NCBI GenBank assembly: GCA_041651115.1
Contig: JBAZJY010000002.1
Location: 73,846-137,845, forward strand
DNA from: Candidatus Omnitrophota bacterium
GTDB lineage: Bacteria; Omnitrophota; Gorgyraeia; Gygaellales; Profunditerraquicolaceae
Length of the DNA: 64,000 bases
Direction: 5' to 3'
In this document: in pieces, positions 1 through 28,409 of the stretch
How positions within the stretch are numbered: position 1 is the first letter of the stretch
Layout of the letters: each line of letters begins with the position of its first letter
Notes under the pieces: generated by a model
The model's input: the letters and a program-made list of their open reading frames with translations, nothing else
Databases searched by the model: none
Told to the model about the DNA's origin: nothing
Made by a program: the position numbers and the translations under genes

Positions 1-3000
1 AATGAATACGCTTCAGAGCTTATCCGGGAACTGATCATCCCAAAGCTTACCCGGGAAATAAATACTTCTAAGAAATACGCATCCCTCAGGCAGGTGTACT
101 ATTCTCTGATCCTGGCGCAATGGTTTAAAGCAAAATTCAATTCGGGCAGCGGCAAATATGAAAACCTCATAAATAGAAAAAACCTTTCCGGCCTGACTTC
201 GCAAATATTCTGGGATAAGCAATTTTACTTCCAGCAATATCAGGATTCATTCAATAAGGGCGAGTACAACCTGAAAGAAAATCGCTCCACTCCCTTTGGC
301 CAGACCATCCGCACCTATATGAGCGGCGGCCTTACCCTGGGCAATGAAATATCGTCAGCTATACAGGCTCAAACCATCGCTTCCAAACGCAGCAGCAGTC
401 CGCTTGCCAATAAAACTTTTAATCAGGCGGCAGAGATAGATGCAAACGGTAATATTAGGATAGCCGAAGGCAGTGTTTCTGCGCAAGAAGAGAATATCGC
501 TATTTTGCACGCGCTTATTAATCAGGGGCCTAAGGCATTTTTGTCCGGAGAAAAAGGCGATGAAAACAGGGATAGGGTAATCGGTATTGCCGAAAAATTT
601 GATTTCTACGTGGAGGAACTTTTAGACGAAGAGGATGAAGAAGATTTTTTTGAGTACGTTTTAGGGCTGGAAAAGCTGCTTAAGTTAAATCCCAGGGTCC
701 ATCAAGAGCCATCGGAGATGTTCGTCCATCTGGATAATCTTTCGCATAATCTGGGGCACATTAACAATCTTTTTAATATCGCGATCATAAGTTTCAATAA
801 AGTAGATGAAGTGGAATTAAGAACAGGGCAGATGAATATGTATCTTGCCGAGTACCAGGCCATAAGAAAACTGCTCTCCTGGGATGGCCTCAACAAAATT
901 AATCCGGAAGCCGTTAGCGACTTATTTACCGATACTATCCGTTATGTGGTGGGTTCGCGCGCGCTTTTTAAAGAAATAGGAGATATCTTAAATTCCAACA
1001 GGGACATGATAAGGGAAAAAGAAGAGGGACTGTATAGCCTGATAGACGGCTATCTGGAAAGAGCCAGGCTGGTTGATTCCGAATGCACCCATAATCTTGG
1101 GATCCTGAAACGGCTCAAGGAAGAAATATATGAGCCCGGAAAAAAAGAGCCGATTAACATTGGAGTTTCTGTCTACGAGGCTATTGAGCCATATTTGCAT
1201 AATGGCCATAGGGTCAAGTTTATTACGGATTTCCGGGATCAGGGAATGATGGTGCAGGCCAATGCTTTGCGCCTCTCCTATACATGGACTAATCTCATCG
1301 GGAATGCCATAGATGCCGTTAATAAATTCAAGCGTACTCCCGAAGGAAGAGGAGTCGATGGGATATTGACTGTTTCTGTCAGGCCGGTGCATACGGAGAA
1401 TACGGACATAATGGAAGTATCGTTTCAGGATAACGGCGGCGGTATTTCCAAGGCGATGAGCGAGAACGACAGGCTGTTTCTGCGCGGCGAATCCGACAAG
1501 CAGGGGGGCACAGGCAGGGGCCTTGCTTTGTGCAAAGAGGCTGCGGAATTTCACGGCGGGACTATAAGTGTTGAACCGAGGAGAGTGAGTGAATTTGACG
1601 ACAGGCCCGAGAAAACAGAAGATCCGAAGCGCGGCGCTAGATTTGTCATCCGCCTGCCCGTTGTTGCCAGCTCGCCGGTGGCTATAAGCGAGATCGCTCA
1701 AAAGGATAGCGATAAGATCACCCGGGAAGATAAGGCCGCCATGCTTAACCACGCGCGGCAAATGGATTTTTACGTCCAGCGCATAGAGGAAGAGAACGAT
1801 AGCCAAAACCTGAAAGCATATGCGACAGCGCTCGCAATTCTGGAAAAAGAAGGAGTTAAGCCGGCAGAAGGAGTTTACGCGGGCAAGCAAATAGATTTTA
1901 ACATCGTCAGCCACGATATCGGCCATATGATCATAGAAATGACCGTACTTCTCGGTATTTTGGAATTAGTGCCTGTAGAGAACGATCCGGCTGGTTATAA
2001 AAAGAGGGCATTGGAGCTGTGGGCTAAAATTCAGGCTTGGCAGGCAATCTTAGACTGGGAAAAAACCCTTGGCATTGCTCCCGGCATCCTCTCACGCATG
2101 ACAGAGGAGATTGGCAGCGATCTTGACAGCGTGGGCAATTTTTATAACGAGGTAAAAGATTATTTTAACCGGCATGTAGATAGTGAGATAGTGGCTGATT
2201 ATTCGGCGGCAGTAGACTTGCGCAGAGGAGAGAGAGAAATAATTGACTTTCTTCTTAGTGAGCTTAAGAACAACATATCAGATCCTTCAAGGGCCGCGGC
2301 CATAGATGAAAAATTTATTATCAATAAATTAGTGTGGTCTTATGAAAAACTAAAATCGGCTAACCTGAACTTTCAACTAAGGTTAAGAGCAGAAAATCTC
2401 CAAACATATGGAAACCCGCTGCGCGTTTATTCTATTTTTAAGAACCTGATCACTAATGCCGTAGATGAAGCAGCGGGGCTTGCCACTGGAAGCAAGTTTG
2501 TTAAAACGCCATCCGGTAAGTTTACAGAGGTTCGGCTTACCGATGAGCAGAAAAGGACTGTTGAAGAAAATAAAACCATCATTATCGCGAATAAGAACAT
2601 TAAAGAAGGCGACAAAGATTACGCGGAGTTCAGCATTGAAAACATAGCCTATATAACTCCGGAGATGAATGCGGAGTTATATGGCGGCAGAAAACTTTTT
2701 GCCAAAGGCCAAACCGGTAAAGAAAGCGGCACAGGCCTTGGCCTGGCCCTCATTGAAGAGATCGTTAAAGAGCACGGCGGAAGCGTTGATTATTACATTA
2801 AAGATATTCCCGGCGATGATACGCTTAAAAAGATACAATTTGTGGTAAAGCTGCCCGCGGTTTCCAGCTCGCCGGTCAGCGGCGATAAGGTTATCTTGAG
2901 CACGGCGGGAACAACAATCTCTTTATCTTCCGGAGACCAGGCCCGGATAGTAAGTGAGTTCCGGAGGCTGGCCAATCAAATTACTACGGAATTTTCGGAA

Positions 3001-6000
3001 GAAGATTTCCGCGAGAGCATGGGTTTAATTGTCGGCACGCATGAAAACGGAGCATATAGAATTACCAGGCTGGTTCCGATCACTGAGTTTGAAAAAGGCA
3101 GCAGCTATGATTTCCTTCTTCCCGGAAAGGCCCAGGTGATCCGGATCATTGAGAATGAACTGCGGAGCGGTGAACAGATCCTGGGTGATTACCATAATCA
3201 TTCTTATGAAAGACTGCGCAGTTTTCAGAAACCGGGCCCCAGTTCAGAGGATGCCATGGGAGGCGGATACTTGAATATTATCGGATACGAGAATAAGATC
3301 GCAAATAACCGCCTGAACATAGTTTTAGAGCCCGAATTGGACTTGGATAAGATAACCATGGATGAGCTGGCGAATTTTGACCCGTCTAATTCGCGGGTTA
3401 TCCTCTATCCTTACATATCGCCGAACAGGGGATTGGAGAGAAGGATTATCGAGCTGGATAAGATCTATTTGGATGCCTTGACAAAAGAAGTTAATTCCGG
3501 AGCGACCAGCTCGCCGATGAAATTGGGGGATCTTAAGAAATTAGCTCTCGGCGCAATGATGGCGTTTTATTTGTCCTGCTTGAGCTTCCATAACGTTAAT
3601 GCCCAAGTCAATGACACGCCGGCAATTGATTATTATTTTACCGTTAGCTCGCAGCTCCAGGATTCCATAAACAACTTAGTAAAGAAAGAGTTTTATGACA
3701 TAGTTTCGTTATCGCCAGACCAGATAAAGCAGCTGTTGACGGCAAAAGACCTTACGGAATTTAAGTCGGTGGCTGAATCTATGTTAGAGAAGAAGGGGTT
3801 AAGCCTGCCTTATTATGCACCGGAGGATATTGCGGATTTAGTATCTTCCTCAAAAACAGGGGACAGCGATATCCAGAGGCTAATCAGGATCAAAGGCGGC
3901 CTGAATTATCTCAGTCAGCATCATCCCTGGGTATTCAGGTTCGTTATGTTTAATGCCCAAAGAATAATTTTTGATTTTACTTATAATAAAAGCGGGGGAT
4001 ATGAAAATGAGCGCAAAATATATTACGGCGTTTTGCTTGACAACTATGCCATTGAAGAAATCGCCGCATTTCTGGCGCATGAGGCCGCGCATAGCTTCTT
4101 GGAGCTGATGGGAATGCCTGTAGGCGGGGCCGCAGGAGAGAGCGTTGCGATATATTTAGGTGATCTGATATTAAAAAACGCAAATATCAGGTTAGGCGCA
4201 GATAAATTTATCCTTAATTTGTCTTCTGAAGCGGCAAACAGAGGTCATTGGGGGCCGTGGCAAGATGCATATTATGAAGAAACCTATAATAAGGCCGGCA
4301 TTGAATTAAGGGATCATCTCAGGCACTTGGAATTTATTACTAAGCTGCCCGCAACATTGTTGGATATCATCATATTTGGCTCAAAAGACCAGTGGGAAAT
4401 TTATCCGGAATACAGGCGGCTGGGGCTCGATGCGCTTGGGGAGATATTAGAATCTGTTGAGTCGCAGCCGGTTGAAACCAAGGAATTCTTCGGAGTTTTA
4501 TTTGCCAACTATTTTGATGAATTGTGGAACGCGGGGGACGGGCTATATCGTGAATTGATACGCGCATATTTATTAAAAAACACAAACTACATCCCTGCGG
4601 CAAAACAACGGTTGATATTAGATGAGGTCGGCAATGCTCAAGTGGATGCCAGCTCGCCGGTGAAGGCTGCAGGGTTCTTGAAGACGACCGCGCTGTTATC
4701 AATGCTGTTTTTCCTGCCGGTGTTTGTCCAGCAGTCATTCAGCCAGAGCGCAAGGGCGCCTACCAATGTAGAGATGACGATATATATGTCGCGCGTAAAG
4801 GACCTTTCCGAGGCCAAAGACTTAGGCAGTTTATTAAAGATCATCAAAGACGATAAGGCCCATGCATTGTTTAAGATGCAGGCGATGGATGCCGTGCAGC
4901 GCATGCCTATGGTAATGAATAAGGCCTCGGACCTGATGAGGGCACTTGGCGCGATTGAAGACATTTATAATGATCCGCAGACCAGCAATCTAATAAACGG
5001 GAATACAGTCAGCTGGCTGGAACAGATCATGAAGAAATATGAAATTATCTGGTGGGGGGGTAAGGATACTCTCTTTGCGCCGATAGATGTTTATAAAGGC
5101 ACAGCAGAACTGATCCAGCAGATCGCTGCCGATCACCCGGATTTTATCAAGCCCGGGTCGTTGGCAGAATTCATCAGCAGGCAGCGCCAACCGCAGCTGC
5201 TTTATAAGCCGTGGCCGCATTATCCGGTTTATCAAAATCCGCAGTTTATCGCCGGGGTGCAAAAATATAACGCCGACACGCGGGAATACTATTCCATTTC
5301 CATGGCTGTTTATGACCTGCTGAATCTGGCCGGGGTAGGCTTAAGCGATACGACTATCAGCCAGGCAACGGATTATATTATGCAGCAGCGGCAGGCCTTT
5401 GGCCAACGGGTATTCTTTGATAAAGAGACCACAGCCATATTCATTGTTACCGAAGGAGAGGAATCTCAAAAGGACGTTGATCTGTTACGGGGCATTGCGC
5501 TGGACGCAGGAGTCTTGGAAGAAAATATCCATATTTTCCGGGGCATGAAAGATAAGCGTAAGCTCGCAACGCTTATTTCCGAGAGCACCGGGCCGCTAAC
5601 CATCGCCACAAATATGGAAGGGAATGAAGCGTCCTGGCGCATGGATCCCGAAGGCAATCAGCTTTCTTATGCAGAGTTTGCCAAATGGCTTGAGGCACGA
5701 AGTATTTTAACCAATGTAAATATTATTCTTGACGGCTGCCTGTCGACCAACCTTACAGAAGGGATGATCAATCTGCTTTACGATCCTTATGATCCTGCTT
5801 CCAAAGCAGCAGCTATCAGAAGGGGCCTGCCGACCGTAGTCTCAACTTCGGACGATAACCACCCTAGTTATGCGGACCAGCAAGGCCAGAGTTTCTTTTA
5901 TTCCGAGTTAAGCCTTATGCCGCGCGTTCCCGGAAAGCCGCTCCTGGGCAGGCAGATATTAGATACCGAGATTGCCGGATATAAACGGATGTTCGTTCTT

Positions 6001-9000
6001 GAAAATCCGCGCGTTTCGGTTTTTCTGCCGCTGGAGGGCAGGGAAGAGTTAGACCATATTTTCGGCGGCAAGACAAAATGGGGAAAAGTCTGGTTTTTCC
6101 CGATCGGCCAGGCTGAACCTAAGACCGATACGCTTAAGCCGGATGGCCTGCTGGCGCTCGGGCCAAAAGAAACCGTTACCAGCTCGCCGCTGAAGGCCGG
6201 CGGGTTCTTTAAAACAGCTGCGTTGGTATCAATGTTGGTGCTCCTGCCGGCATTGGGCCAGCCATTATTCGGCCAGCAAGCTGAACTTTTATCTACCGAT
6301 GCGCAAGGCCGCGCAGAGTTTAAGAACAATGTCTCTCTTACTTTGGCATCTTTAGGGGGAGCCGTTGATATTACGGCAGCTGCCGAGGCTGATCGCCCCC
6401 GTACATACAATTACAACCCTCAAACCGGGATGCTGGAGATTACATATGCTATTCCGGGATATGTCAATGTCAGCAAACCCAACGACGTAGTTACAATAAC
6501 CGCGCGAAAAATTGTTCCGCAGTTTGCCCTTATTACCGATGAATCGGGAAGCCAGGATAAAGAAGCCATGACCGAGCAGGGCCGTCAGTTCGCAAGAGTC
6601 CTGCAGTTTATCCAGAATAGATATCCTGGCATGCGCAATATCCGAATAAGCACGGTTACCGATCCCAACCCTCAAGTTTCCTCTTATTCCGGTGCAGCCG
6701 ATGCGCAAGATTATTTTAATCAGCCGGTATTCCAGAGCGACCCGTTACTGGGAGCCACGCATTTCGTAGAGGCAGTAAGAAATACAATCAAATCTTTTAA
6801 TAATAGCGCTCCGGGGATAATTTTAGCAGCCTCTTCAGATTTTGAACAGGATCCTTTGGCCAGAGGCAGTGATCCTGTAAAACCGGAAGATTTGAGAGCT
6901 CCTTTTTATGAAATGGCCGGTGAATTAGAGGAGCTTAATACCCACCTTTTTATTGCAACGCAAAATGCTGACAGTCAAAAGAACATCCGAATATTGACGG
7001 ATGAGTATCTTAAAAAGTGCGAGGCGGAGGGAAAGGCGCCGTATATTCATTACCAGGTTGTAGGCGCGGAAAATATGAGCGCCGCATTTACCTCTTTTAT
7101 CGCTGAATCTGATTTTCCTGAACAAATTCCTTTACCTACGCAGAATAAGGATATCAAGATAGATTTTCTTTCTTCTGGCCCCGGCGGGCAAGACGCCTCC
7201 GGAGCGGTCAACCCGCAACAGGGGTCCCTTGCCGGTAGTATAAAAATAAACGGAAGCACTTTAGTCCTAAAAGATTTATTTAAGGGATTAGGGGATGTTG
7301 ATTCCGCGCAGGTCGTTTTTTCGTATGAACCCCTGATAGTTCCGCTACCATTAACGCACACCCCGCAGGATATTTACCTGGTGAAAGATTATAGCGGCAG
7401 CGTCAGGGATATAAAGTGGAATGCTTTCCTGAAAGACTTACTTATTAAATTAAAAGAGAGAGGAGACCGGATTATCGGCGGGACATTCTTTGGCCCGGAA
7501 GTCATCTCGGTAGCCGGTTTTGATGGCGTTTTAAGCGCCGTGGAATCGCCCAGGGGTGGGTATACCCATGGCTGGGCGGCCTTAAAAAAGATCTTCCAGC
7601 AAATGGACGATATGCCCGATAATGCGACATTATATTTTATTTCAGACGGCGTATTTAATGACCGGGATTTTACTGACGGGGAGAAAGAACGGGTCAAGGA
7701 AAAATTCCTGCAGAAATTAAAGGATAAAAACATACGCTTTGTCTGGATCGCGCCCGAAAAGGCTTCTCCGGGCGTAACCAAATTTTTGTCAAATGCCGTT
7801 AATAACGGAAAAGCAGCGGACAATCTCCGGGCTTCTTTAAGCCCCTATGCCACGCTGTTGACATTTGCCGTTGCTACCAACCCGGACAGGGGAGTGGTGT
7901 TTTATAAAAACGAAGATACGATTTCCGGCCTGGCCGAAGCCACGGGGCTTTATAGCAGGAAAGTTATCGATGTCCCGGAAAAATTCCCCATAAGGCAGGT
8001 GCAAATATTGTTTCAGGATGAGGGGAAAGAAAAGCGGATAGTAGTAGATATGCAAGACACAGAAGAAAAGCCCGGTTCCAGCTCGCCGATCACCGAGTTA
8101 TCCGGCCAGCTGCCTGAAGAAGAAGCCGCGCAGCTGGAAATACCATTTGTATACCCCCAGAATGCGCCTACCGTCATCTTGCCGCTGAAACTCAACGGCG
8201 CTGATAAAAAAGAATTAATGGAATATAAGGGTACCCTGGAGATTTTAAAAGCGAAATTATCAAATTACCTTGAACATCCCGAATATCTTAAAGACAAAGG
8301 AAAGCTCGAAAGCGTTTTGCCTATCGCCAAAGAGGCAATCAGCGAATTTTTGGGAAAAGTAGCTGCTGCCGATAAGTTAAGGCCGGTTTATGATACCTTT
8401 GCCCGGGCGGATTTTGATGCTCCTATAAACACAGATTTTGGCGACCAGTTTAATGGTTTTGTTGCTTATGTTCAAATGGGGATAAACCAACTTGATTCGC
8501 AAGGATCCATTTCATCGCGTTTAATTTTGAGCCTGATAACTACGCTTACCCAAACCATTGAATTTTTAGAGAACGCAATTTTAATCTTTGAAAAACTCAC
8601 TGGCCCCTCAAAGAGCGAATTTAAAACCAAGCTGTCAAACGGAGGATCGGGAAGCCCTTCCGTCCTCATATTGGATCTCAATGACCTTTTAAGCAGTGTC
8701 GGCTCAGAGATCAGCTCGCCGGTAAAAACAGAAGCTACGAATGATAAGGGCGGTATTGATTTTAGGGCGTTGCCGGTTGTGACGCAGCCGGTTTTAGGGA
8801 CGGTTCTCAGCCAAGGAGAAAAACGTCCCCAAATGGGGACGCTTTTACCTTGGACTGAGAACCGTCCCTCTCTTGACCAGGAATTACAGCAGATTAGGAA
8901 GATGATTGATTCCGGAATTGTTCCCTCAAGCGAGAGAATCAAGGAATATGCGCAGACTTGCGGCAGCCAGGACATAGATAAAATATTATCTTGTATCGCG

Positions 9001-9159
9001 GATATCTTAAGACTGGAAGAAGAGCGGGTTGAGGAAACCGATCCGCAGTTAAGACAGTTGGTCATGGTGCTTGAATCGGATAAGCCGGCAAATGAGATGC
9101 AGCTGGCAGTAGCCGCGATCTCGTTTTCCGCGAAAGATCCGGTTCTGGTGAAACCTTAA
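1..9159 (+). CDS. Giant multidomain protein, 5'-partial (frame open from nt 1; >3,050 aa). It has two GHKL/HATPase_c ATPase modules, an HExxH zincin-like motif, a vWA domain with a DxSGS MIDAS motif, and SSP-punctuated modules with internal signal-peptide-like segments.
   Basis: Frame 1 is open from nt 1 to the TAA at 9157-9159; the ORF track starts it at an in-frame GTG at 94. HATPase_c N/G1/G2 boxes are visible twice (NLIGNAIDAV..DNGGGIS..GGTGRGLALCKE at ~1290-1540; NLITNAVDEA..GTGLGLALIEEIVKEHGG at ~2440-2770). HEAAH lies at 4078-4092, DYSGSV at 7387-7401, and SSP junctions at 1667, 2864, 3506, 4649, 6179, 8078 and 8712. Confidence 0.7.
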   Translation, partial: NEYASELIRELIIPKLTREINTSKKYASLRQVYYSLILAQWFKAKFNSGSGKYENLINRKNLSGLTSQIFWDKQFYFQQYQDSFNKGEYNLKENRSTPFGQTIRTYMSGGLTLGNEISSAIQAQTIASKRSSSPLANKTFNQAAEIDANGNIRIAEGSVSAQEENIAILHALINQGPKAFLSGEKGDENRDRVIGIAEKFDFYVEELLDEEDEEDFFEYVLGLEKLLKLNPRVHQEPSEMFVHLDNLSHNLGHINNLFNIAIISFNKVDEVELRTGQMNMYLAEYQAIRKLLSWDGLNKINPEAVSDLFTDTIRYVVGSRALFKEIGDILNSNRDMIREKEEGLYSLIDGYLERARLVDSECTHNLGILKRLKEEIYEPGKKEPINIGVSVYEAIEPYLHNGHRVKFITDFRDQGMMVQANALRLSYTWTNLIGNAIDAVNKFKRTPEGRGVDGILTVSVRPVHTENTDIMEVSFQDNGGGISKAMSENDRLFLRGESDKQGGTGRGLALCKEAAEFHGGTISVEPRRVSEFDDRPEKTEDPKRGARFVIRLPVVASSPVAISEIAQKDSDKITREDKAAMLNHARQMDFYVQRIEEENDSQNLKAYATALAILEKEGVKPAEGVYAGKQIDFNIVSHDIGHMIIEMTVLLGILELVPVENDPAGYKKRALELWAKIQAWQAILDWEKTLGIAPGILSRMTEEIGSDLDSVGNFYNEVKDYFNRHVDSEIVADYSAAVDLRRGEREIIDFLLSELKNNISDPSRAAAIDEKFIINKLVWSYEKLKSANLNFQLRLRAENLQTYGNPLRVYSIFKNLITNAVDEAAGLATGSKFVKTPSGKFTEVRLTDEQKRTVEENKTIIIANKNIKEGDKDYAEFSIENIAYITPEMNAELYGGRKLFAKGQTGKESGTGLGLALIEEIVKEHGGSVDYYIKDIPGDDTLKKIQFVVKLPAVSSSPVSGDKVILSTAGTTISLSSGDQARIVSEFRRLANQITTEFSEEDFRESMGLIVGTHENGAYRITRLVPITEFEKGSSYDFLLPGKAQVIRIIENELRSGEQILGDYHNHSYERLRSFQKPGPSSEDAMGGGYLNIIGYENKIANNRLNIVLEPELDLDKITMDELANFDPSNSRVILYPYISPNRGLERRIIELDKIYLDALTKEVNSGATSSPMKLGDLKKLALGAMMAFYLSCLSFHNVNAQVNDTPAIDYYFTVSSQLQDSINNLVKKEFYDIVSLSPDQIKQLLTAKDLTEFKSVAESMLEKKGLSLPYYAPEDIADLVSSSKTGDSDIQRLIRIKGGLNYLSQHHPWVFRFVMFNAQRIIFDFTYNKSGGYENERKIYYGVLLDNYAIEEIAAFLAHEAAHSFLELMGMPVGGAAGESVAIYLGDLILKNANIRLGADKFILNLSSEAANRGHWGPWQDAYYEETYNKAGIELRDHLRHLEFITKLPATLLDIIIFGSKDQWEIYPEYRRLGLDALGEILESVESQPVETKEFFGVLFANYFDELWNAGDGLYRELIRAYLLKNTNYIPAAKQRLILDEVGNAQVDASSPVKAAGFLKTTALLSMLFFLPVFVQQSFSQSARAPTNVEMTIYMSRVKDLSEAKDLGSLLKIIKDDKAHALFKMQAMDAVQRMPMVMNKASDLMRALGAIEDIYNDPQTSNLINGNTVSWLEQIMKKYEIIWWGGKDTLFAPIDVYKGTAELIQQIAADHPDFIKPGSLAEFISRQRQPQLLYKPWPHYPVYQNPQFIAGVQKYNADTREYYSISMAVYDLLNLAGVGLSDTTISQATDYIMQQRQAFGQRVFFDKETTAIFIVTEGEESQKDVDLLRGIALDAGVLEENIHIFRGMKDKRKLATLISESTGPLTIATNMEGNEASWRMDPEGNQLSYAEFAKWLEARSILTNVNIILDGCLSTNLTEGMINLLYDPYDPASKAAAIRRGLPTVVSTSDDNHPSYADQQGQSFFYSELSLMPRVPGKPLLGRQILDTEIAGYKRMFVLENPRVSVFLPLEGREELDHIFGGKTKWGKVWFFPIGQAEPKTDTLKPDGLLALGPKETVTSSPLKAGGFFKTAALVSMLVLLPALGQPLFGQQAELLSTDAQGRAEFKNNVSLTLASLGGAVDITAAAEADRPRTYNYNPQTGMLEITYAIPGYVNVSKPNDVVTITARKIVPQFALITDESGSQDKEAMTEQGRQFARVLQFIQNRYPGMRNIRISTVTDPNPQVSSYSGAADAQDYFNQPVFQSDPLLGATHFVEAVRNTIKSFNNSAPGIILAASSDFEQDPLARGSDPVKPEDLRAPFYEMAGELEELNTHLFIATQNADSQKNIRILTDEYLKKCEAEGKAPYIHYQVVGAENMSAAFTSFIAESDFPEQIPLPTQNKDIKIDFLSSGPGGQDASGAVNPQQGSLAGSIKINGSTLVLKDLFKGLGDVDSAQVVFSYEPLIVPLPLTHTPQDIYLVKDYSGSVRDIKWNAFLKDLLIKLKERGDRIIGGTFFGPEVISVAGFDGVLSAVESPRGGYTHGWAALKKIFQQMDDMPDNATLYFISDGVFNDRDFTDGEKERVKEKFLQKLKDKNIRFVWIAPEKASPGVTKFLSNAVNNGKAADNLRASLSPYATLLTFAVATNPDRGVVFYKNEDTISGLAEATGLYSRKVIDVPEKFPIRQVQILFQDEGKEKRIVVDMQDTEEKPGSSSPITELSGQLPEEEAAQLEIPFVYPQNAPTVILPLKLNGADKKELMEYKGTLEILKAKLSNYLEHPEYLKDKGKLESVLPIAKEAISEFLGKVAAADKLRPVYDTFARADFDAPINTDFGDQFNGFVAYVQMGINQLDSQGSISSRLILSLITTLTQTIEFLENAILIFEKLTGPSKSEFKTKLSNGGSGSPSVLILDLNDLLSSVGSEISSPVKTEATNDKGGIDFRALPVVTQPVLGTVLSQGEKRPQMGTLLPWTENRPSLDQELQQIRKMIDSGIVPSSERIKEYAQTCGSQDIDKILSCIADILRLEEERVEETDPQLRQLVMVLESDKPANEMQLAVAAISFSAKDPVLVKP

Positions 9160-9342: not shown

Positions 9343-9954
<612 letters not shown>

Positions 9955-9957
9955 ATT

Positions 9958-10905
9958 ATGACCTGGACAAAAAAAGATCTATTGGGCCTGGAATACCTAA
10001 GCCGCGAAGAACTGGAATTGATCCTGGCAACCGCGGAATCCTTTAAAGAAGTTTCCAGCCGCGAGATCAAAAAAGTCCCTGCCTTGCGCGGAAAGACCGT
10101 AGTGAATTTATTCTATGAGCCGTCTACGCGCACAAGGGTTTCTTTTGAGGTTGCCGCAAAAAGGCTGTCTGCCGACGTAATTAATATTGCCACGGAAACT
10201 TCCAGCGTAAAGAAAGGAGAAACGCTTATTGATACGGGTAAGAACATACAGGCGCTCAAGGCGGATATTATCGTGATGCGCCATAATTATTCCGGAGCAG
10301 CGGCAATGCTGGCGCGCAGCCTTGATATCAGCGTAGTTAATGCCGGAGACGGCTGGCATGAGCATCCTACGCAGGCGCTGCTGGATATTTTTACCCTGAA
10401 GGAAAAACTGGGAAAGATCGCAGGTTTAAACGTAACCATTGTTGGAGATATCGCCCATTCCCGCGTTGCCCGTTCAAACATCTGGGGTTTGACTAAGCTG
10501 GGCGCAAAAGTAACGGTTTGCGCCCCGGCCATGATTATCCCGCCGGCAATTGAGCAAATGGGGGCTTATGTTACCAGTGATATTGATAAAGCGCTTGCCT
10601 CTGCCGACGCAGTGAATGTCTTGCGCATGCAGTTTGAGCGCGATGAACAAAATGCCTTTCCAAAACAGTTGGAATATTTTAAGAATTTCGGGATCACCGT
10701 TGATCGCTTGAAAAAAGCAAAGAAAGACATCATCGTCATGCATCCCGGCCCGATCAATCGCGGCATTGAAATGTCCAGTGAAGTTGCAGACGGCGCCAAT
10801 TCCGTAATTTTAGAGCAGGTGACCAACGGCATTGCCGTGCGCATGGCAGTGCTTTTCTTGGTTGCCCAGGCAAGAGAGAAGGGTAATGCAAAAAATACTG
10901 ATTAA
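9958..10905 (+). CDS. pyrB: Aspartate carbamoyltransferase catalytic subunit.
   Basis: STRTRVSFE and HPTQALLD motifs; 315 aa. Confidence 0.92.
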   Translation: MTWTKKDLLGLEYLSREELELILATAESFKEVSSREIKKVPALRGKTVVNLFYEPSTRTRVSFEVAAKRLSADVINIATETSSVKKGETLIDTGKNIQALKADIIVMRHNYSGAAAMLARSLDISVVNAGDGWHEHPTQALLDIFTLKEKLGKIAGLNVTIVGDIAHSRVARSNIWGLTKLGAKVTVCAPAMIIPPAIEQMGAYVTSDIDKALASADAVNVLRMQFERDEQNAFPKQLEYFKNFGITVDRLKKAKKDIIVMHPGPINRGIEMSSEVADGANSVILEQVTNGIAVRMAVLFLVAQAREKGNAKNTD

Positions 10906-12169
10906 GAACGGCAAGGTTATTGACCCGGCGCAAAATATCAACGGAGAAACCCTGGATATCCTGGTGCAGTCCGGAAAAATAGCCAAGCTCGCTAAAAATA
11001 TTAAGGCAGATGCCGATAAAGTAATTGATGCCTCGGGAAAGATCGTCATGCCTGGTATCGTAGATATGCACGTGCATTTAAGGGAGCCGGGCAGGGAAGA
11101 TAAAGAAACCGTGGCCAGCGCTACAGCCGCGGCATTAAAGGGCGGGGTAACGTCGGTGCTGGCAATGCCGAATACCCAGCCGGCAATGGACACTAAAGAA
11201 AGCCTGATATTATTAAAGAAGATTGTTAGGGCTTCCGGCCTTTGTAATGTTTTTATCTGCGCTGCGATCACCAAGGAAAGGCAGGGCAAAGAATTAACCG
11301 ATATCCCAGGGCTTAATAAGTCAGGCGCGATCGCCATATCAGACGACGGCGCGTCAGTAGATGACGAAAACTTGTTTTTGGCAGCGATGAAAAAGGCAAA
11401 GGCCGCCGGTATCCCGGTGATCTGCCACTCCGAAGATAAAAAACTTTCCGGTAACGGTGTAGTTAACCGGGGGATCATCTCCACTAAACTTGGCTTGCGC
11501 GGAATTTCCAGAGAGTCGGAATATACAAGGGTTGAGCGCGATATTAAACTGGCAGAAAAGGCAAAGGCAACAATCCACATTGCTCATGTCAGCTGCCGGG
11601 AGTCAGTGGAGCTCATCAAGCAGGCGAAAAAAAGAGGGGTCAGGGTAACCGCGGAAACTGCCCCGCATTATTTTTCTTTGGACCAGGACGCGCTAGCTGG
11701 CTACGATACAAATCTTAAAATGAACCCGCCGCTTAGAGAGGCCGCGGATGTGGAGGCAATAAAGCAGGGGTTGAAGAGCGGGGTGATTGATGCGATCGCC
11801 TCTGACCATGCCCCGCATACAGAGAATGAAAAGGACATTGAATTTGACCGCGCTGAATTCGGGGTGATCGGCCTGGAAACCGAACTTGCCGCCGGCATTA
11901 CCGAGCTGGTGCAAAAAGGAGTCCTGGATTGGCCGGGCCTGGTAAAAAAATTCTGCCTTAATCCGGCAAAAATATTAGGTATAGACAGGGGTACTTTACA
12001 AATCGGCAAACCGGCAGATATCATGGTTGTTTCGCCCAAAGATGAATGGATAGTGCAAAAGCATGGACTCGCCTCCAAATCCAAGAACTCCGCGTTCATC
12101 GGCAAAAAACTAACCGGCGTTGCCGAGTATACTGTCTGCAACGGAAATATCGCATATCAAAGGCTGTAA
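10886..12169 (+). CDS. pyrC: Dihydroorotase.
   Basis: DMHVHLREPG and SDHAPH metal-binding motifs. The ATG at 10886 (MQKILIKNGKVIDP) overlaps the pyrB end; the track ORF begins earlier at an alternative start. Confidence 0.88.
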   Translation: MQKILIKNGKVIDPAQNINGETLDILVQSGKIAKLAKNIKADADKVIDASGKIVMPGIVDMHVHLREPGREDKETVASATAAALKGGVTSVLAMPNTQPAMDTKESLILLKKIVRASGLCNVFICAAITKERQGKELTDIPGLNKSGAIAISDDGASVDDENLFLAAMKKAKAAGIPVICHSEDKKLSGNGVVNRGIISTKLGLRGISRESEYTRVERDIKLAEKAKATIHIAHVSCRESVELIKQAKKRGVRVTAETAPHYFSLDQDALAGYDTNLKMNPPLREAADVEAIKQGLKSGVIDAIASDHAPHTENEKDIEFDRAEFGVIGLETELAAGITELVQKGVLDWPGLVKKFCLNPAKILGIDRGTLQIGKPADIMVVSPKDEWIVQKHGLASKSKNSAFIGKKLTGVAEYTVCNGNIAYQRL

Positions 12170-12174
12170 AAGCA

Positions 12175-12203
12175 TTGAATATCGCCCACAATAAAGCTAT
12201 AAT
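12175..12203 (+). promoter_or_regulatory. Near-consensus promoter (TTGAAT-17-TATAAT) ending 8 nt before the EndoQ ATG, implying a leaderless or near-leaderless transcript.
   Basis: ttgaat at 12175-12180, a 17-nt spacer, tataat at 12198-12203, and ATG at 12212. Confidence 0.45.
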
Positions 12204-12211
12204 ACTATTCT

Positions 12212-13453
12212 ATGGAATTTATCGCTGATTTCCACATTCACTCAAGATACTCGCGCGCCACATCCAAGGATATGGATGTCAAGCATCTGGCGGAATGGGC
12301 AAAATTAAAGGGCATCACCCTGATGGGCACGGGTGATTTTACCCATCATTTGTGGCTTGAAGAGCTAAGAAATAACTTAGAAGACCTTGGCAATGGCCTG
12401 TTCAAATATAATGATATACATTTTATCCTCACCAGCGAGATCAGCAGTATCTATTCCAAAAAGGGGAAGACCTACCGCATCCATAATATGGTCTTCAGCC
12501 CTTCGCTTAAGACTACGGATAAGATCAATTATAAGCTTTCACAGTGCGGCAACCTTGCTTCTGACGGCAGGCCGATACTGGGCTTAGACGCGGCAGAGCT
12601 TGCGCGTATTGTCTTCGATATTGACGAGAACTGCATGGTCGTTCCCGGCCATATCTGGACACCATGGTTTTCCCTCTTCGGGTCAATGTCCGGCTTTGAC
12701 CGCATTGAAGATTGCTTTGAAGACCAGGCGCCGAAGATCTTCGCTTTGGAAACCGGCCTCTCCAGCGACCCGGCAATGAACTGGCGTTTAAGCGCGCTGG
12801 ATAAGTTCACCTTGATCAGCAATTCCGACAGCCACAGCCCGTCAAAGATCGGCAGAGAAGCAAATGTATTTGACTGTGATCTGGATTATAAAACGATCCG
12901 GGAAGTGCTTAAGACCAAGGACCAAAAGAGGTTTTTATACACGATTGAATTTTTCCCGGAAGAGGGCAAATACCATTATGACGGCCACCGTAACTGCGAT
13001 ATCAGATGGTCACCTAAAGAAACAAAACAGCATAACGGGAAATGCCCTAAGTGCAACAAGCCGGTTACTGTGGGGGTGATGAATCGCGTTGACCAGCTGG
13101 CAGACCGGCCGGAAGGATATAAGCCGTCCAATAGCATTCCCTTTAAGAATCTTATCCCCTTTGAGGAGATCATTGCCGAGGCAAAGGGCGTGGCGTCCAC
13201 TTCTGTCAGCGTAGAGCGGGACTATCATAGCCTGCTTGCCAAATTTGGCACAGAATTCAATATTCTGCTGCGCGCATCAGAAGATGAACTGCGCAAGGGC
13301 CTGCCGTCAAAAGTCGCGGAAGGAGTTTTGCGGGTGCGCAAGGGCAAAGTGAATATTAACCCCGGGTTTGACGGAGAATACGGCAAAGTCGCCATTTTTG
13401 GCGAAAAAGATAAGCCGACAGCAGAAGGTGAAAAGCAATTAAGCTTGTTTTAG
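12212..13453 (+). CDS. Endonuclease Q (EndoQ) homolog. It has a PHP-like N-terminal domain and a C-terminal zinc finger.
   Basis: The N-terminus FIADFHIHSRYSRATSKDMDVKHLAEWAKLKGITLMGTGD closely resembles the archaeal EndoQ N-terminus. GKCPKCNKP is a Zn-finger near the C-terminus. Confidence 0.7.
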   Translation: MEFIADFHIHSRYSRATSKDMDVKHLAEWAKLKGITLMGTGDFTHHLWLEELRNNLEDLGNGLFKYNDIHFILTSEISSIYSKKGKTYRIHNMVFSPSLKTTDKINYKLSQCGNLASDGRPILGLDAAELARIVFDIDENCMVVPGHIWTPWFSLFGSMSGFDRIEDCFEDQAPKIFALETGLSSDPAMNWRLSALDKFTLISNSDSHSPSKIGREANVFDCDLDYKTIREVLKTKDQKRFLYTIEFFPEEGKYHYDGHRNCDIRWSPKETKQHNGKCPKCNKPVTVGVMNRVDQLADRPEGYKPSNSIPFKNLIPFEEIIAEAKGVASTSVSVERDYHSLLAKFGTEFNILLRASEDELRKGLPSKVAEGVLRVRKGKVNINPGFDGEYGKVAIFGEKDKPTAEGEKQLSLF

Positions 13454-13458
13454 TATAT

Positions 13459-13530
13459 GCGCCTGTGGCCCAACGGATAGGGCACTAGCCTCCGGAGCTG
13501 GTGGTACAGGTTCGATTCCTGTCAGGCGCA
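13459..13530 (+). tRNA. tRNA-Arg (anticodon CCG).
   Basis: Cloverleaf folded by hand: acceptor GCGCCTG/CAGGCGC, anticodon loop CTCCGGA, T-loop TTCGATT. No encoded CCA. Confidence 0.85.
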
Positions 13531-13541
13531 CTTTTATAACA

Positions 13542-13623
13542 GCGGGTCCTGTCTGCTGATTTACCCCGCTGCGCTCAAGCTTGCGCTTTCGCTCGCGGGG
13601 TCCCCCAATCAGCAGCCACCCGC
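13542..13623. repeat. Copy A of a structured ~85-nt intergenic repeat (long imperfect hairpin; central AAGCTTGCGCTTTCG loop). It is MITE-like or a small structured RNA.
   Basis: About 85% identical to 37638-37731. Internal arms pair as ctgctgatt/aatcagcag, accccg/cggggt and gcgggt/acccgc. It lies immediately 3' of tRNA-Arg. Confidence 0.6.
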
Positions 13624-13652
13624 GCTAACGAATAAGTGTTTATGAGAATGCC

Positions 13653-14105
13653 ATGACTAAGAAAATCATAGGGGTAATTGGCGGAAGACAGTGTAATAAG
13701 GAAGTGGAGCAAACAGCCATAAAATTAGGCAAAAAATTGGCTAAAGTGGCTGATTTACTTGTTTGTGGCGGTTTAAGTGGAGTAATGGAGGCGGTAAGCA
13801 AGGGTTTTAAGGCTGCAGGAGGCACAACCATAGGTATTCTACCGGGTTACCACAAGACCGAAGCTAATTCTTTTGTTGATATAGTCATTCCTACGGGAAT
13901 GGGATTAGCAAGAAATGTGCTGGTGGTCAAGGCAGCCGATGTTGTAGTAGCCTTGCCCGGAGAAGCAGGTACGCTTTCTGAAATCGCCTATTGCCTGCAA
14001 TTCGGCGTTCCCGTAGTAAGTTTTAATTCCTGGGATATCCCCGGCGTGATCAAGGCCAAAACTATTGAGCAAACAATCAAAGAAGTCAGGAAAAAGTTAA
14101 AATGA
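13653..14105 (+). CDS. LOG / TIGR00725-family Rossmann-fold protein (predicted nucleotide 5'-monophosphate nucleosidase-like).
   Basis: GGxxGxME core ([12 protein letters not shown]) and PGExGTLSE motif; 150 aa. Confidence 0.6.
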
Positions 14106-15724
14106 AAAAGAAAGTGATTATCTTAGGTGGCGGCCCGAACCGGATCGGCCAGGGCATTGAATTTGATTACTGCTGCTGCCACGCTTCCTATGCGCTTGAG
14201 GAAGAAGGCATTGAAAGTATTATGGTCAACTGTAATCCCGAGACCGTATCCACGGATTACGATACCTCTGACCGGCTGTATTTTGAACCGATAACAATAG
14301 AAGACGTGATGAACATTGTTGAATTGGAAAAGCCGATCGGCTTGATCGTGCAATTCGGCGGCCAGACCCCGCTTAACCTGGCAGTCGGCCTGCGCAAGTT
14401 GGGCGTGAATATCCTCGGTACCAGCGCAGACAGCATAGACATTGCCGAAGACCGTAAACGTTTTAAAGAAATGCTCCACAAGCTAAGCCTGTTGCAGCCG
14501 GATAACGGCACGGCGTTTAATTTCAAAGAGGCCGAAGCAGCGGCAAAGCGGATCGGTTATCCGGTGCTGGTGCGGCCTTCCTATGTGCTCGGCGGCAGGG
14601 CAATGGAGATAGTTTATGACGAATCTATGCTGGAAAAATTCATTGCCGAGGCGGCGCGGGTATCGGGCGAACATCCGGTATTGATCGATAAGTTCCTTGA
14701 AGATGCCATTGAAGTTGACGTGGACTTGATCGGCGACGGAGAAACTTTTGTCATCGGCGGGATCATGGAGCATATTGAAGAAGCGGGGATCCACTCCGGA
14801 GATTCGGCAATGGCCTTGCCGACATTTACCCTCTCCGGCGGGATTTTAAATAAAGTCAGGCAGGCAACATACGAAATGGCAAAAGAACTTAAGGTCAGAG
14901 GCCTGATGAATGTCCAGTATGCGGTTAAAGACGATAAAGTCTATGTGCTGGAGGTTAACCCGCGGGCATCGCGCACCGTTCCGTTCGTGTCTAAGGCGAT
15001 CGGCGTGCCACTGGCAAAACTGGCGACTAAAGTAATGATGGGGAAAAAACTAAAAGACTTCAAGTTTACCAAAGAAATTATCCCGGATTACTTTTCCGTT
15101 AAAGAATCGGTTTTCCCCTTCAGCCGCTTCTCCGGAGTAGATGTGATCCTGGGACCGGAAATGAAATCCACCGGAGAAGTAATGGGCATAGACAGTGATT
15201 TTGGCAGGGCGTATATCAAGAGCCAGTTGGCAGCCGGCCAGGATCTGCCGGTCAAGGGAAATGTTTTTATCTCGGTAAGAGACCGCGATAAGCGCGCGAT
15301 AGCTTTTATCGCTAAAAAACTACAAGACCTGGGATTCAAGATTCTTGCTACCTCCGGCACAGCTTCGGCGCTGGAGAAAAATGGCATTAAAGTCAAGGTC
15401 CTGCGTAAGATCGCCGAGGGCAGGCCGAATATATTGGATCTAATGAAAGACGGGAAGGTTCAGCTGGCGATCAACACGCCTTCAGGCAGGGTGCCGCGCC
15501 AGGATGAAGTGGCCATCCGTTCGCGCGTTATTCGTTACGGCATACCTTATACCACGACGATTTCCGGCGCCCAGGCAACTACAAATGGCATTGAGGCGCT
15601 GATGAAAAGGGGCCTGGATGTAAAGCCGCTGCAGGAATACCATAAAAAAATCAAAAGTCAAAAATCAAAAGTCAAAACAAGATGGCCTAAGGAAGATAAA
15701 AATGCCGGAACTTCCAGAAGTTGA
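14102..15724 (+). CDS. carB: Carbamoyl-phosphate synthase large subunit, C-terminal half (second ATP-grasp plus MGS-like domain). This is a split carB.
   Basis: Starts [28 protein letters not shown], which is the second repeat of CarB. An MGS-like domain (ILATSGTAS) sits at the C-terminus. The low-complexity tail overlaps fpg. Confidence 0.85.
15646..15673 (+). repeat. Tandem 14-bp duplication (AAAAATCAAAAGTC x2, 28 bp) in the carB 3' tail.
   Basis: Read directly. Removing one copy restores a TAA at 15688-15690 ahead of the fpg RBS. Confidence 0.6.
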
Positions 15725-16502
15725 GACAATAAAGAGGGAATTAGAACAGGTGTTGGCGGGTAAGAAGATCATCGACGTGATCGTCAATAACCCGAAGGTC
15801 ATCCGCGAGCCGAAGAAAGACGGTTTTGTCAAAGGCTTAAAAGGCGCCGGGATCAGGAATGTTTTAAGAAAAGCAAAGCTTTTGATCATTGAGCTTTCTA
15901 CCGGTAAATCCCTGGCCATTCATCTAAAAATGACCGGCCAGCTGATCTATCCGGGTAACGGCAAGTCCAGCAGGGTAAGCTTCAAGCTTTCCGACGGCAG
16001 ATTGCTGGATTTTAATGACCAGCGCCTGTTCGCGGAATTGCGGCTGGTTAATGACTGGCGCGCCTTAAAGTTCGTGCGGGAGTTGGGGCCTGAACCGTTT
16101 GATATTACCCGGGAACGTTTCAAGGCAATGCTTACCGATAAAAAAACAAAGATAAAGCCGCTGATCATGGACCAGCAATTCATTTCCGGTATCGGTAATC
16201 TGTATGCTGCCGAAGCGTTATTCAGGGCAAAGATAGATCCTTCGCGCCCGGCATGCAGCCTGAAAGATGCCGAAAAAGATTTGTTGTTTAAGGAAATAAA
16301 AGATACATTGAAAGAGGCGATAAAATACGGCGGCTCGTCCGTTGACCAATATGTGCGTTCAACGGGTAAGCCCGGCAATTACGCGAAATACCACCGGGTT
16401 TATGACCGCCTGGGCAAGCCTTGCCCAATATGTAAAACGCCGGTAAAGCGAATTGCCTTGGGTGGCAGGGGAACATATTTTTGCCCTAAATGCCAGAAAT
16501 AA
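15702..16502 (+). CDS. mutM: Formamidopyrimidine-DNA glycosylase.
   Basis: N-terminal MPELPEVE catalytic motif and a C-terminal zinc finger CPICKTP..CPKCQK. Confidence 0.9.
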
Positions 16503-16518
16503 CGGGAGCTAGCAGAAG

Positions 16519-17211
16519 ATGAAAAAACGTATTAAGATAAACGGAGTCATCATTTTTATCTGCGTCATCGCAATGATGCTTTTTCCTAATGTATTTTTGC
16601 GCATGAGCTTCAACAAGATAGATATTTTAACGGGCATACTAGGATTAGAGCTTATGTTTTTCGGGCTGCTGCTAAGGGTTTCCAGCCGCGGTTATAAATC
16701 CGAACTTTCCGTAGGGGGCAATAATCTTGTGCGCACCGGCCCATACTCGTTAGTAAGGAACCCGATGTACCTGGGTATTTGTTGCATTGCCCTCGGTATT
16801 ATCATGGTGCTATTCCAGTGGTGGACGCTGGCCGTATTCGGTATATTTTTTGCGTTGCGTTACCTTACCTTGATCCGGGTTGAAGAGAAAGGCCTTCTTG
16901 AAAAATTCGGACACCGTTACAGCGAATATCAGAAAGACGTGCCGCGGATATTGCCCAGGCTGAACACGCGGCTGAATAAGGACCTGCTGAATTGCCTGCC
17001 GTTAAAGCTGAGCTGGATAAAAAAAGAACTGAACAGCATTTTGATCATTGTCCCGGGGGTCTTAGGCATTGATATGTGGAAGAAATTCATATTATGCGAA
17101 AACGACCTCGCGCTGCCGTATTTTTTGATCCTTAGCTGGATAATCTGCGCGCTGATTGTCCTGGCAGCTGTTCTGGTAAAAAATTATGAAGGCTACCCAA
17201 AGCAAAAGTAA
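16519..17211 (+). CDS. Isoprenylcysteine carboxyl methyltransferase (ICMT) / phospholipid methyltransferase-family membrane protein.
   Basis: Multi-TM protein with the RTGPYSLVRNPMYLG family motif. Confidence 0.65.
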   Translation: MKKRIKINGVIIFICVIAMMLFPNVFLRMSFNKIDILTGILGLELMFFGLLLRVSSRGYKSELSVGGNNLVRTGPYSLVRNPMYLGICCIALGIIMVLFQWWTLAVFGIFFALRYLTLIRVEEKGLLEKFGHRYSEYQKDVPRILPRLNTRLNKDLLNCLPLKLSWIKKELNSILIIVPGVLGIDMWKKFILCENDLALPYFLILSWIICALIVLAAVLVKNYEGYPKQK

Positions 17212-17998: not shown

Positions 17999-18011
17999 AC
18001 TGGAGGGGCAC

Positions 18012-18371: not shown

Positions 18372-18372
18372 T

Positions 18373-19978: not shown

Positions 19979-19981
19979 ACA

Positions 19982-28332: not shown

Positions 28333-28409
28333 GGGCGGTTAGTTCAGCTGGTTAGAACGTCTCTCTTACACAGAGAAGGTCAGGGGTCCGAGTCCTCTAC
28401 CGCCCACCA
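28333..28409 (+). tRNA. tRNA-Val (anticodon TAC), CCA encoded.
   Basis: Acceptor GGGCGGT/ACCGCCC, anticodon loop CTTACAC, T-loop TCCGAGT, 3' ACCA. Confidence 0.85.

Follow-up and report, generated by a model that had tools for sequence, protein, structure and literature searches.

Why should one bacterial gene repeat the same ten nucleotides seven times within 9 kb, each time in frame and at a border between encoded modules? The gene lies at the left end of a 64,000-nt stretch of a Candidatus Omnitrophota genome (GenBank assembly GCA_041651115.1, contig JBAZJY010000002.1, positions 73,846 to 137,845 of the forward strand), which we refer to throughout as the window and by whose coordinates all positions are given. 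Its open reading frame (ORF; frame 1) is open from window base 1, with the true start 729 nt upstream and the stop codon at 9157–9159. The full product (P0001) is 3,295 aa long; the gene is called on a 487-kb metagenomic contig (ENA ERZ27247363, k141_3084633), and P0001 is 100 % identical. At NCBI the product, from a Candidatus Omnitrophota metagenome-assembled genome (MAG), is labelled 'ATP-binding protein', and an exact look-up of the valine-initiated product of window 94–9156 gave no match. The 10-mer, C-AGC-TCG-CCG, is the DNA spelling of a five-residue junction peptide, and the gene belongs to a very large, unannotated Candidatus Omnitrophota family. On balance we favour the reading that the 10-mer is the DNA joint of in-frame module exchange and at the same time encodes a selected inter-module linker, plausibly a processing site, and we consider this reading somewhat probable.

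The 10-mer CAGCTCGCCG occurs on the + strand at 1668, 2865, 3507, 4650, 6180, 8079 and 8712, against 0.18 copies expected from dinucleotide-preserving shuffles, and the total of eight copies was attained in none of 100 shuffles; the eighth copy, on the minus strand at 43967–43976 and antisense to a + strand ORF (43020–45011), is at chance level. With a leading C the repeat becomes the 11-mer CCAGCTCGCCG (expectation 0.04), which is present at the six sites where the original prediction had placed it, while at 8711 the seventh site has TCAGCTCGCCG. Each of the seven is read in frame within the giant ORF, as xxC-AGC-TCG-CCG; the encoded Ser-Ser-Pro precedes V, V, M, V, L, I and V respectively, and the spacing between copies is always a multiple of three. 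There are eight SSP in total, and the remaining one, at nt 394–402, is spelled AGC-AGT-CCG, the exception near nt 391 that had also been picked out previously. Using the codon usage of the gene with the junction codons removed, the probability of AGC, TCG and CCG at any one SSP is 0.021 and that of finding them at seven of the eight is about 1.4e-11, in agreement with the earlier judgement that identical codons are very unlikely by chance. The preceding codons (GCC, TCC, ACC, GCC, ACC, TCC and ATC) specify four amino acids and all seven end in C (P ~1e-3); since the invariant block takes in the third base of a variable preceding codon, the unit is defined in nucleotides and is out of codon register. 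This, together with the gene-specific spellings described below, substantiates the suggestion of a DNA-level element. The 8-mer GCTCGCCG is found seven times in the giant gene and not at all on the + strand of the other 55 kb of the window, so the proposal also survives a check for the motif being common elsewhere.

An explanation from chance or composition, in which selection on amino acids combines with codon bias or the copies are remnants of a recent tandem module duplication, can draw on several features of the gene. AGC and CCG are its commonest Ser and Pro codons (TCG provides 18 % of Ser), the segments 4649–4746 and 6179–6276 match over 98 nt at 77 % identity, as the homology noted after these two copies had implied, and the two kinase modules have their last 39 nt in common. 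Modules 5 and 6 are otherwise unrelated, however, as are the remaining modules apart from this leader and the kinase-module ends, and the idea of a very recent module duplication is not supported; the original prediction thus finds support as to a shuffling junction and none as to duplication. Sequence shared between junction borders amounts to only 10–15 nt, with nothing conserved past about 15 nt. The shuffles, of which none reaches eight copies, the probability of about 1e-11 from the gene's own codon usage and a 23-fold enrichment of the spelling in 79 other loci refute chance and composition as an explanation, and we regard its probability as virtually negligible. An alternative stop-codon idea was dropped, as TCG, AGC and CCG are in use throughout the ORF.

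Read along the window, the gene is laid out as follows.

1–9159, + strand: giant gene, its 5′ end cut by the window
1–330, + strand: N-terminal cap, last 110 residues (...LRQVYYSLILAQWFK...YMSGG), from alignments and the cap profile
394–402, + strand: first SSP after the cap, AGC-AGT-CCG, non-canonical, from the sequence
403–1668, + strand: module 1, histidine-kinase-like, with HATPase_c at its end (Pfam HATPase_c, E-value 2.4e-16)
1668–1677, + strand: junction 1, C-AGC-TCG-CCG (..VVA SSP V..)
1678–2865, + strand: module 2, second histidine-kinase-like module (Pfam HATPase_c, E-value 4.9e-10, to profile position 108 of 111)
2865–2874, + strand: junction 2, C-AGC-TCG-CCG (..AVS SSP V..)
2875–3507, + strand: module 3, JAB/JAMM-like candidate metalloprotease (E...HNH...PGPSSED), a sub-threshold Prok-JAB match
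3507–3516, + strand: junction 3, C-AGC-TCG-CCG (..GAT SSP M..)
3517–4650, + strand: module 4, orphan, with a signal-peptide-like start (MKLGDLKKLALGAMMAFYLSCLSFHNVNAQ) and containing HEAAH, from the translation
4650–4659, + strand: junction 4, C-AGC-TCG-CCG (..VDA SSP V..)
4649–4746, + strand: junction-plus-leader repeat, copy 1 (SSPVKAAGFLKTTALLSMLFFLP...), 77 % identical to copy 2
4660–6180, + strand: module 5, signal-peptide-like leader, no known domain in domain searches
6180–6189, + strand: junction 5, C-AGC-TCG-CCG (..TVT SSP L..)
6179–6276, + strand: junction-plus-leader repeat, copy 2 (SSPLKAGGFFKTAALVSMLVLLP...)
6190–8079, + strand: module 6, signal-peptide-like leader and a weak VWA-like region (Pfam VWA_CoxE, E-value 5.2e-5, sub-threshold)
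8079–8088, + strand: junction 6, C-AGC-TCG-CCG (..PGS SSP I..)
8089–8712, + strand: module 7, 208 aa, no function assigned by domain searches
8712–8721, + strand: junction 7, C-AGC-TCG-CCG with T instead of C before it (..SEI SSP V..)
8722–9156, + strand: C-terminal cap (KGGIDFRALP, disordered linker, five-helix bundle ..PSSERIKEY..ILRLEEE..), from the alignment

Each junction in the window lies where one protein would be expected to stop and the next to start. The HATPase_c matches run to the end of the profile, stopping five to six residues short of junctions 1 and 2 (that of module 1 extends to position 109 of 111, five residues before junction 1), and a homologue of module 2 in P0005 (P and L numbers are used where homologues have to be told apart) starts at ASSPL and ends at GSSPA. 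Module 3 begins at SSPV in P0002, P0003 and P0004 too, and the final cargo module of P0011, to which module 7 is weakly similar, has ASSPI at its end. Signal-peptide-like sequences follow immediately after the junction in modules 4, 5 and 6, and in L019 and L036 junctions are followed by twin-arginine (TAT)-like RR leaders. Of 69 cap-proximal junction-like sites in relatives, 23 have AGC or AGT for the second Ser.

Two of the modules may be peptidases. The E, HxH and SxxD residues of module 3 are conserved, and the E...HxH...PGPSxxD pattern is typical of JAMM/MPN+ metalloproteases; weak Prok-JAB matches are obtained with six of the seven homologous modules (best E-value 0.0015, all under the Pfam gathering score), and a junction-bounded JAMM-like module is present in about eight of 120 members among the homologues listed. 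The HEAAH of module 4 is a possible zincin-type site, although the module has no match in Pfam, NCBIfam or the PDB. A search of a 5.8-billion-protein collection with module 4 and the JAB module as queries returned nothing, a result that leaves the matter of free-standing homologues unsettled. The leader of modules 5 and 6, of about 31 aa, can be written K-A-x-G-F-[FL]-K-T-x-A-L-x-S-M-L..LP..Q..F.Q, and a similar leader follows a junction of P0003; it may be a family-specific sorting signal instead of a generic signal peptide. A metagenome scan with a 19-mer from the junction plus leader gave at least 120 matches, all of them chance matches in short ORFs and nearly all on high-GC contigs, and a metagenome scan with module 5 found no close relatives of the window gene.

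The family to which the gene belongs has a simple plan, evident on reading P0001 and its homologues: a conserved N-terminal cap (N-cap; ~350 aa) that opens with a signal-peptide-like sequence, then variable cargo, and finally a conserved C-terminal cap (C-cap; ~130 aa). The N-cap motifs FWVNLRPD, LQLKKDT, TLTRPWIVP, LRQVYYSLILAQWFK and YMSGG lie at the very N terminus, and residues 1–353 of P0001 match the cap profile with an E-value of 1.5e-168. When 1.84 billion representatives were searched with the N-cap profile, at least 7,252 clusters at 50 % identity were found (E-value at most 1e-10), and in the best 150 matches the cap always occupies residues ~1–340 of proteins that are 450–7,391 aa long. 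Among GTDB species representatives there are 413 matching loci, essentially all of them in Omnitrophota and with several paralogues per MAG. A search of the 5.8-billion-protein collection yielded 197 homologues, of which the 120 listed are 1,700–4,900 aa long and share only 4–7 % of the query; among these matches only the two caps are held in common and the cargo differs in each. The C-cap region (8722–9156) aligns with 117 of 119 homologues and terminates at least 39 of 47 complete ORFs. AlphaFold2 models of the N-cap and the C-cap have pLDDT (predicted local distance difference test) values of 83.5 and 78 respectively. There is no Pfam or NCBIfam model for the family, and no description of the caps, the junction peptide or the DNA joint was found in the literature searched, which did not extend to subscription journals.

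The cargo modules resemble complete proteins, including kinases, methyltransferases, glycolytic enzymes and proteins with Sec- or TAT-like leaders of their own. Pfam matches in the cargo of the homologues include methyltransferases, metallophosphoesterases, enolase, transketolase, phosphomannomutase, NDK, HPr, GNAT, M48 peptidase and DnaJ, and the cargo of the window gene consists of two HATPase_c modules, one JAB-like, one VWA-like and three orphan modules. No natural splits of the gene at junctions were found among family members, the early-ending ORFs resembling frameshifts or variant C-caps.

Two contigs of viral collections also carry the N-cap. In IMG/VR contig L086 (1938–7530, 9220–10176) phage tail genes (minor tail protein L and tip attachment protein J) lie about 1.7 kb upstream of it, and in a second contig, L087, radical-SAM genes do so; these may represent a prophage neighbour or misclassified contigs.

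What the original prediction missed is that the feature staying constant from member to member is a junction peptide, A-[SGA]-S-[PA]-[VILM], which occurs in many codon spellings. This five-residue junction joins modules in about half of the members. A logo of 136 canonical sites reads A (63 %), S/G/A, S, P/A and V/L/I/M (85 %), with unconstrained flanks; the pattern is found 1.7 times per 1000 aa, against 0.42 expected from composition, and the count grows with protein length. The 120 listed homologues comprise 55 with junctions of the SSP type, seven with an Asp-Gly-Gly (DGG) type and 58 with few or no recognizable junctions. In two closely related genes, P0029 and P0031, S-S-P is kept at ten to twelve junctions while all three codons vary (TCT/TCA/TCC/AGT, TCG/TCT/TCC/TCA and CCG/CCC/CCT/CCA). 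To judge from such patterns the junction peptide is under selection. Translation restart at the junctions was considered and rejected, since the following codon encodes an aliphatic residue and is mostly not a start codon (GTA, GTT, ATA and CTT predominate, although GTG also occurs). On reading the seven upstream flanks, no recurring Shine-Dalgarno-like sequence was visible either.

Some domain borders in the family have no junction. Several tripeptides (DFP, VPG, SPD and others) are over-represented where junctions are few, but these proved to be internal domain repeats, not junctions. In P0115, a stretch of 1,947 aa (residues 555–2501) combines transaldolase, aminotransferase and transketolase domains that no junction motif separates.

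Close relatives differ by whole modules, and the breakpoints lie at junctions, as expected if these are, as had been proposed, sites of module shuffling. P0029 and P0031, with 95 % DNA identity, are set apart by a 2.5-kb indel of two modules; their homology stops within three bases of the border between ..ET and SSP and restarts at T-SSP. Between P0018 and P0032 (87 % identical) one homology block has its start precisely at [A/S]GSPLQNK and another has its end precisely at ..AGSP, and between P0088 and P0113 (90 % identical) cargo has been exchanged between junction-proximal points. The setting in which this happens is a conserved one. The window gene has a TP_methylase gene on one side and pyrR-pyrB-pyrC on the other, and dnaA-dnaN-gyrB-gyrA-glmS is about 10 kb away (all of these, among others, lying within 10 kb; the distance to dnaA is that in L081). 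In at least five genomes the locus is one and the same: P0001, P0059, P0018, P0029 and P0031 all occupy it, in the order glmS, TP_methylase, giant gene, pyrR, pyrB, each with entirely different cargo (window, L081, L083, L084 and L085); P0059, at this same TP_methylase/pyrR locus, uses junctions of the DGG type. The gene is thus hypervariable within a conserved, origin-proximal core of the chromosome.

The DNA spelling of the junction is far from random across the family. In the 79 other loci, AGCTCGCCG accounts for 15 % of SSP[VILM] sites, against 0.65 % expected (23-fold), TCG is used for the second Ser at 42 % of sites against a background of 10 %, and the preceding base is C in 57 %. The pattern [AG]GCTCG[CG]CG occurs 15.5 times per 100 kb in the sense direction of family ORFs, with 63 of 65 occurrences in frame, as compared with 0.7 in antisense and 1.6–1.7 outside. 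Individual genes have house spellings: AGCTCGCCG in the window gene, GGCTCGCCG in L036 and L030, AGCTCGGCG in L015 and L069, AGTTCGGCG in L040, GCTTCGCCG in L010 and TCT-TCN-CCN in P0029, and paralogues of one MAG can use different ones. Within genes, junction 9-mers are identical with a frequency of 0.156, against 0.033 when permuted (0 of 2000 permutations), and this holds when the window gene is left out. The two Ser positions favour distinct codon families, AGY at the first and TCN at the second; since these are not interconvertible by synonymous change, the preference is as predicted by descent from one ancestral spelling. At DGG junctions GACGGCGG is used in 9 of 13 and 8 of 12 cases (L082, 423–8108, and L083, 3001–15975), although GAC and GGC are minority codons there. 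We note that joints of the SSA type (TCGGCGG) and the DGG type (ACGGCGG) have a common core, CGGCGG, in different reading frames. When junction type was compared with the N-cap nearest neighbour, the resolution was too low to tell if the DGG and SSP types form clades.

Such strict spelling raises the possibility that the 10-mer is itself a nucleic-acid signal under selection (the core site of a recombinase, an mRNA cleavage or binding site, or the target of a methyltransferase) and that SSP is its mere translation. All seven copies are identical, including four synonymous positions and the C of variable preceding codons, and the combination of non-synonymous differences just upstream with no synonymous difference inside the block is the opposite of neutral decay. 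Elsewhere the variants are one nucleotide apart (AGC/GGC/GCC and CCG/GCG), such that amino acid changes follow nucleotide changes, the enrichment is specific to strand and frame, and the DGG junctions are likewise marked by a GC-rich codon-specific block. The behaviour of orthologues, however, speaks the other way. In six orthologue pairs, third positions of junction codons are identical in 97 of 134 cases (72 %), against 4,587 of 5,716 (80 %) elsewhere at identical amino acids, so that junction codons change at the background rate or faster; they drift synonymously like other codons, there is no sign of nucleotide-level selection, and the notion of a nucleotide motif kept by selection is not borne out. 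Many junctions, moreover, retain SSP with quite different codons, spellings differ among paralogues of one genome, and no recombinase gene is nearby. Conservation ends at about 15 nt, folding of 40 nt to either side of the seven junctions with RNA energy parameters revealed no structure that was common to them or unusually stable (z-scores −0.01 to 1.3), and reading of the flanks showed no inverted repeats there, no dedicated inverted-repeat scan having been run. On balance we regard a selected nucleic-acid signal as unlikely.

The codons might alternatively act through translation kinetics, a ribosomal pause at the triplet of each domain boundary giving the upstream module time to fold, or to be cleaved, before the next one emerges. 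TCG is the rarest Ser codon in the family as a whole (10 %) and is enriched 4-fold at the second Ser, and the sites do lie at domain boundaries. In the window gene, though, AGC and CCG are the commonest codons of their kind and TCG, at 18 %, is not rare, and the block takes in the third base of a variable preceding codon; house spellings also differ between paralogues served by one tRNA pool, and orthologues show no synonymous constraint. We consider this explanation very improbable.

The preferred reading is that the 10-mer is a joint of module exchange that also encodes a selected linker. In-frame insertion, deletion or exchange of modules at junctions would carry the junction along as a stretch of DNA, either by recombination through the short shared sequence or by a site-directed process of an unspecified kind. 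New joints would be born with a canonical spelling close to GCC-RGC-TCG-SCG-GTG and would then drift synonymously; some orthologous junctions differ at 5–7 of 15 nt and look 'reset' to the canonical spelling. That all seven joints of the window gene have one spelling points to recent rearrangement or homogenization at a hypervariable locus. At the protein level the junction peptide would be a linker kept by selection, and its likeliest function would be to mark where the polyprotein is processed into individual proteins; candidate proteases are the JAMM-like and HExxH modules embedded in it. Processing of this kind would reconcile the presence, in one ORF, of cytoplasmic-type enzymes, ATP-dependent kinases and Sec/TAT-type leaders behind an exported N-cap.

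Several observations weigh against this reading. About half of the family has few or no junction motifs, from which it follows that the junction is not essential to the architecture, and the set of 'junction-like' sites includes chance matches that inflate the bimodality observed. The P0029/P0031 indel, the only one examined base by base, is flanked by no identical junction copies and shows about 4 nt of microhomology; no recent exchange was seen between paralogues of one MAG, and there is no recombinase, integrase or mobile-element gene within 10 kb on either side of the window gene. The G+C content at third codon positions (GC3) of the modules (0.45–0.58) is close to that of the neighbouring genes (0.53–0.58), so that the modules do not look like fresh imports and seven still-identical joints become harder to explain by recency alone. 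On the protein side, we infer cleavage at the junctions wholly from sequence, the protease candidates are weak (the JAMM-like module is found in few members and is sub-threshold in Pfam), and neither cap is protease-like or has a fold match in the PDB. The GC3 values, which are not import-like, and the indel without identical flanking joints are the reasons for which a lineage-specific nucleotide constraint, or homogenization, stays a rival, one that we judge unlikely but deserving of weight.

The linker could also be merely a flexible one, tolerated in a membrane-anchored multi-enzyme giant that is never cleaved, with the internal 'signal peptides' serving as transmembrane anchors, an interpretation given to such proteins in a 2026 preprint on Omnitrophota long proteins (bioRxiv 10.64898/2026.06.07.730766). 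Topologies of a signal peptide plus transmembrane segments are reported there for multi-enzyme giants; in addition, no universal protease was found, and junction motifs are lacking in half of the family. An unconstrained linker, on the other hand, would not be expected to retain A-S-S-P-[VILM] over hundreds of genomes while its codons drift, and ATP-dependent kinase modules directly follow the exported N-cap with no hydrophobic segment between. In addition, TAT-like leaders after junctions would need a free N terminus, given what is generally known of Tat export. We therefore hold an uncleaved giant to be rather unlikely.

A bolder form of the preferred reading, which we put forward only as a distinctly improbable one, supposes a dedicated mechanism of in-frame cassette exchange, with modules that encode whole proteins being gained, lost and swapped at a core site of ~10–15 nt (C-AGC-TCG-CCG and its variants) in capped carrier genes, the site also encoding the signal A-S-S-P|V for cleavage of the polyprotein into individual enzymes and exported proteins. 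If true, this would combine an integron-like logic at the DNA level with a virus-like polyprotein logic at the protein level, in a bacterial chromosome.

Genes of the pyrimidine-biosynthesis type occupy the part of the window downstream of the giant gene (9415–20590): pyrR-like, aspartate carbamoyltransferase, dihydroorotase, a carbamoyl-phosphate synthase large-chain fragment, a dihydroorotate dehydrogenase pair and OMP decarboxylase. Fpg-, PEMT- and TauE-like genes interrupt the series, and genes resembling V-type ATPase subunit E come after it. An Rfam scan of the window found four tRNAs only; the tRNA genes, at 13459–13531, 28333–28541 and 35821–35901 (Arg-CCG, Val-TAC, Asp-GTC and Leu-GAG), are unremarkable.

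Among known systems, those closest in logic are polymorphic toxins, MARTX (multifunctional autoprocessing repeats-in-toxin) toxins, polyvalent proteins, integron arrays and viral polyproteins. In polymorphic toxins the motifs VENN (CdiA) and PxxxxDPxGL (Rhs) border the conserved part and the swappable modules, recombination occurs there, and the Rhs motif is also a cleavage site. The likeness lies in a short conserved peptide at the border of swappable modules; theirs, however, is one variable C-terminal toxin with an immunity gene, whereas here there is a string of up to a dozen modules, and filamentous haemagglutinin (FHA), YD and Rhs repeats, VENN and DPxGL are absent from the window-gene translation and from its Pfam scans. 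MARTX toxins have conserved N- and C-terminal regions flanking a variable array of effectors that differs between close strains and is released by cleavage. Conserved ends and a variable module array are features of both, but the cargo here is largely of housekeeping-type enzymes and the junction is a fixed five-residue motif; neither RTX or glycine-rich repeats nor a cysteine protease domain was found in any segment with Pfam or NCBIfam, nor were type I secretion genes found.

In integrons the cassettes are separate genes, the attC sites are imperfect inverted repeats of 57–141 bp, and the gene of the IntI integrase adjoins the array. The giant genes resemble them in having, at one locus, variable cargo units divided by a short recurring DNA site, and differ in that the units are fused in frame, that there is no IntI within 10 kb and that no attC-type repeat was seen, albeit in the absence of a dedicated inverted-repeat scan. 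Viral polyproteins and 2A 'StopGo' elements similarly place several proteins in one ORF with a short recurring motif between them, but the gene described here is in a bacterial chromosome, its cleavage would be of a putative kind, and the D(V/I)ExNPGP motif is present neither in the translation nor in the junction logo. Polyvalent proteins of phages and conjugative elements contain two to fifteen disparate domains together with embedded peptidases, for which a role in freeing these domains has been predicted (Iyer et al., 2017; PMC5512222); they are carried on mobile elements, in contrast to the position of this gene in the chromosomal core near dnaA, and no caps or junction motif are described for them in that study. 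Since the defining features of the toxin, polyvalent, integron and viral systems were either looked for and not found here or lie beyond the tests applied, we consider the gene to belong to an undescribed capped family and to none of those others.

Giant genes and very long multi-enzyme proteins have been reported from Omnitrophota before (bioRxiv 10.1101/2023.11.21.568195, West-Roberts et al., 2023; bioRxiv 10.64898/2026.06.07.730766, 2026), and post-translational cleavage has already been suggested for the giants. The gene described here agrees with those proteins in phylum, in the tiling of unrelated Pfam enzyme domains along one polypeptide (methyltransferase, HATPase_c, GNAT, phosphomannomutase and others) and in its N-terminal signal peptide. 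It differs in that the proteins in those studies have at least 10,000 or 30,000 aa, against 3,295 aa here, and are classed by Pfam content and topology. Set beside the 'multi-enzyme metabolic' class of the 2026 preprint, the gene shows the tiling by many Pfam domains and falls short of the catalogue threshold of at least 10,000 aa. No caps, junction peptide, DNA joint or turnover of modules at junctions are described in the portions of these studies that we read.

Giant multi-enzyme genes are a hallmark of Omnitrophota. What is supplied here is an anatomy for them, consisting of two caps and whole-protein modules strung on one short junction, which is also exactly where genes that are nearly identical gain and lose modules. 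Should the junction prove to be a processing site, giant ORFs that lack annotation could by the thousand be divided computationally into their real products, and the paradox of cytoplasmic enzymes and Sec/TAT leaders in one 'secreted' polypeptide would be resolved. If a recombination system recognizes the DNA joint, these genes would represent a new way of assembling genes in frame.

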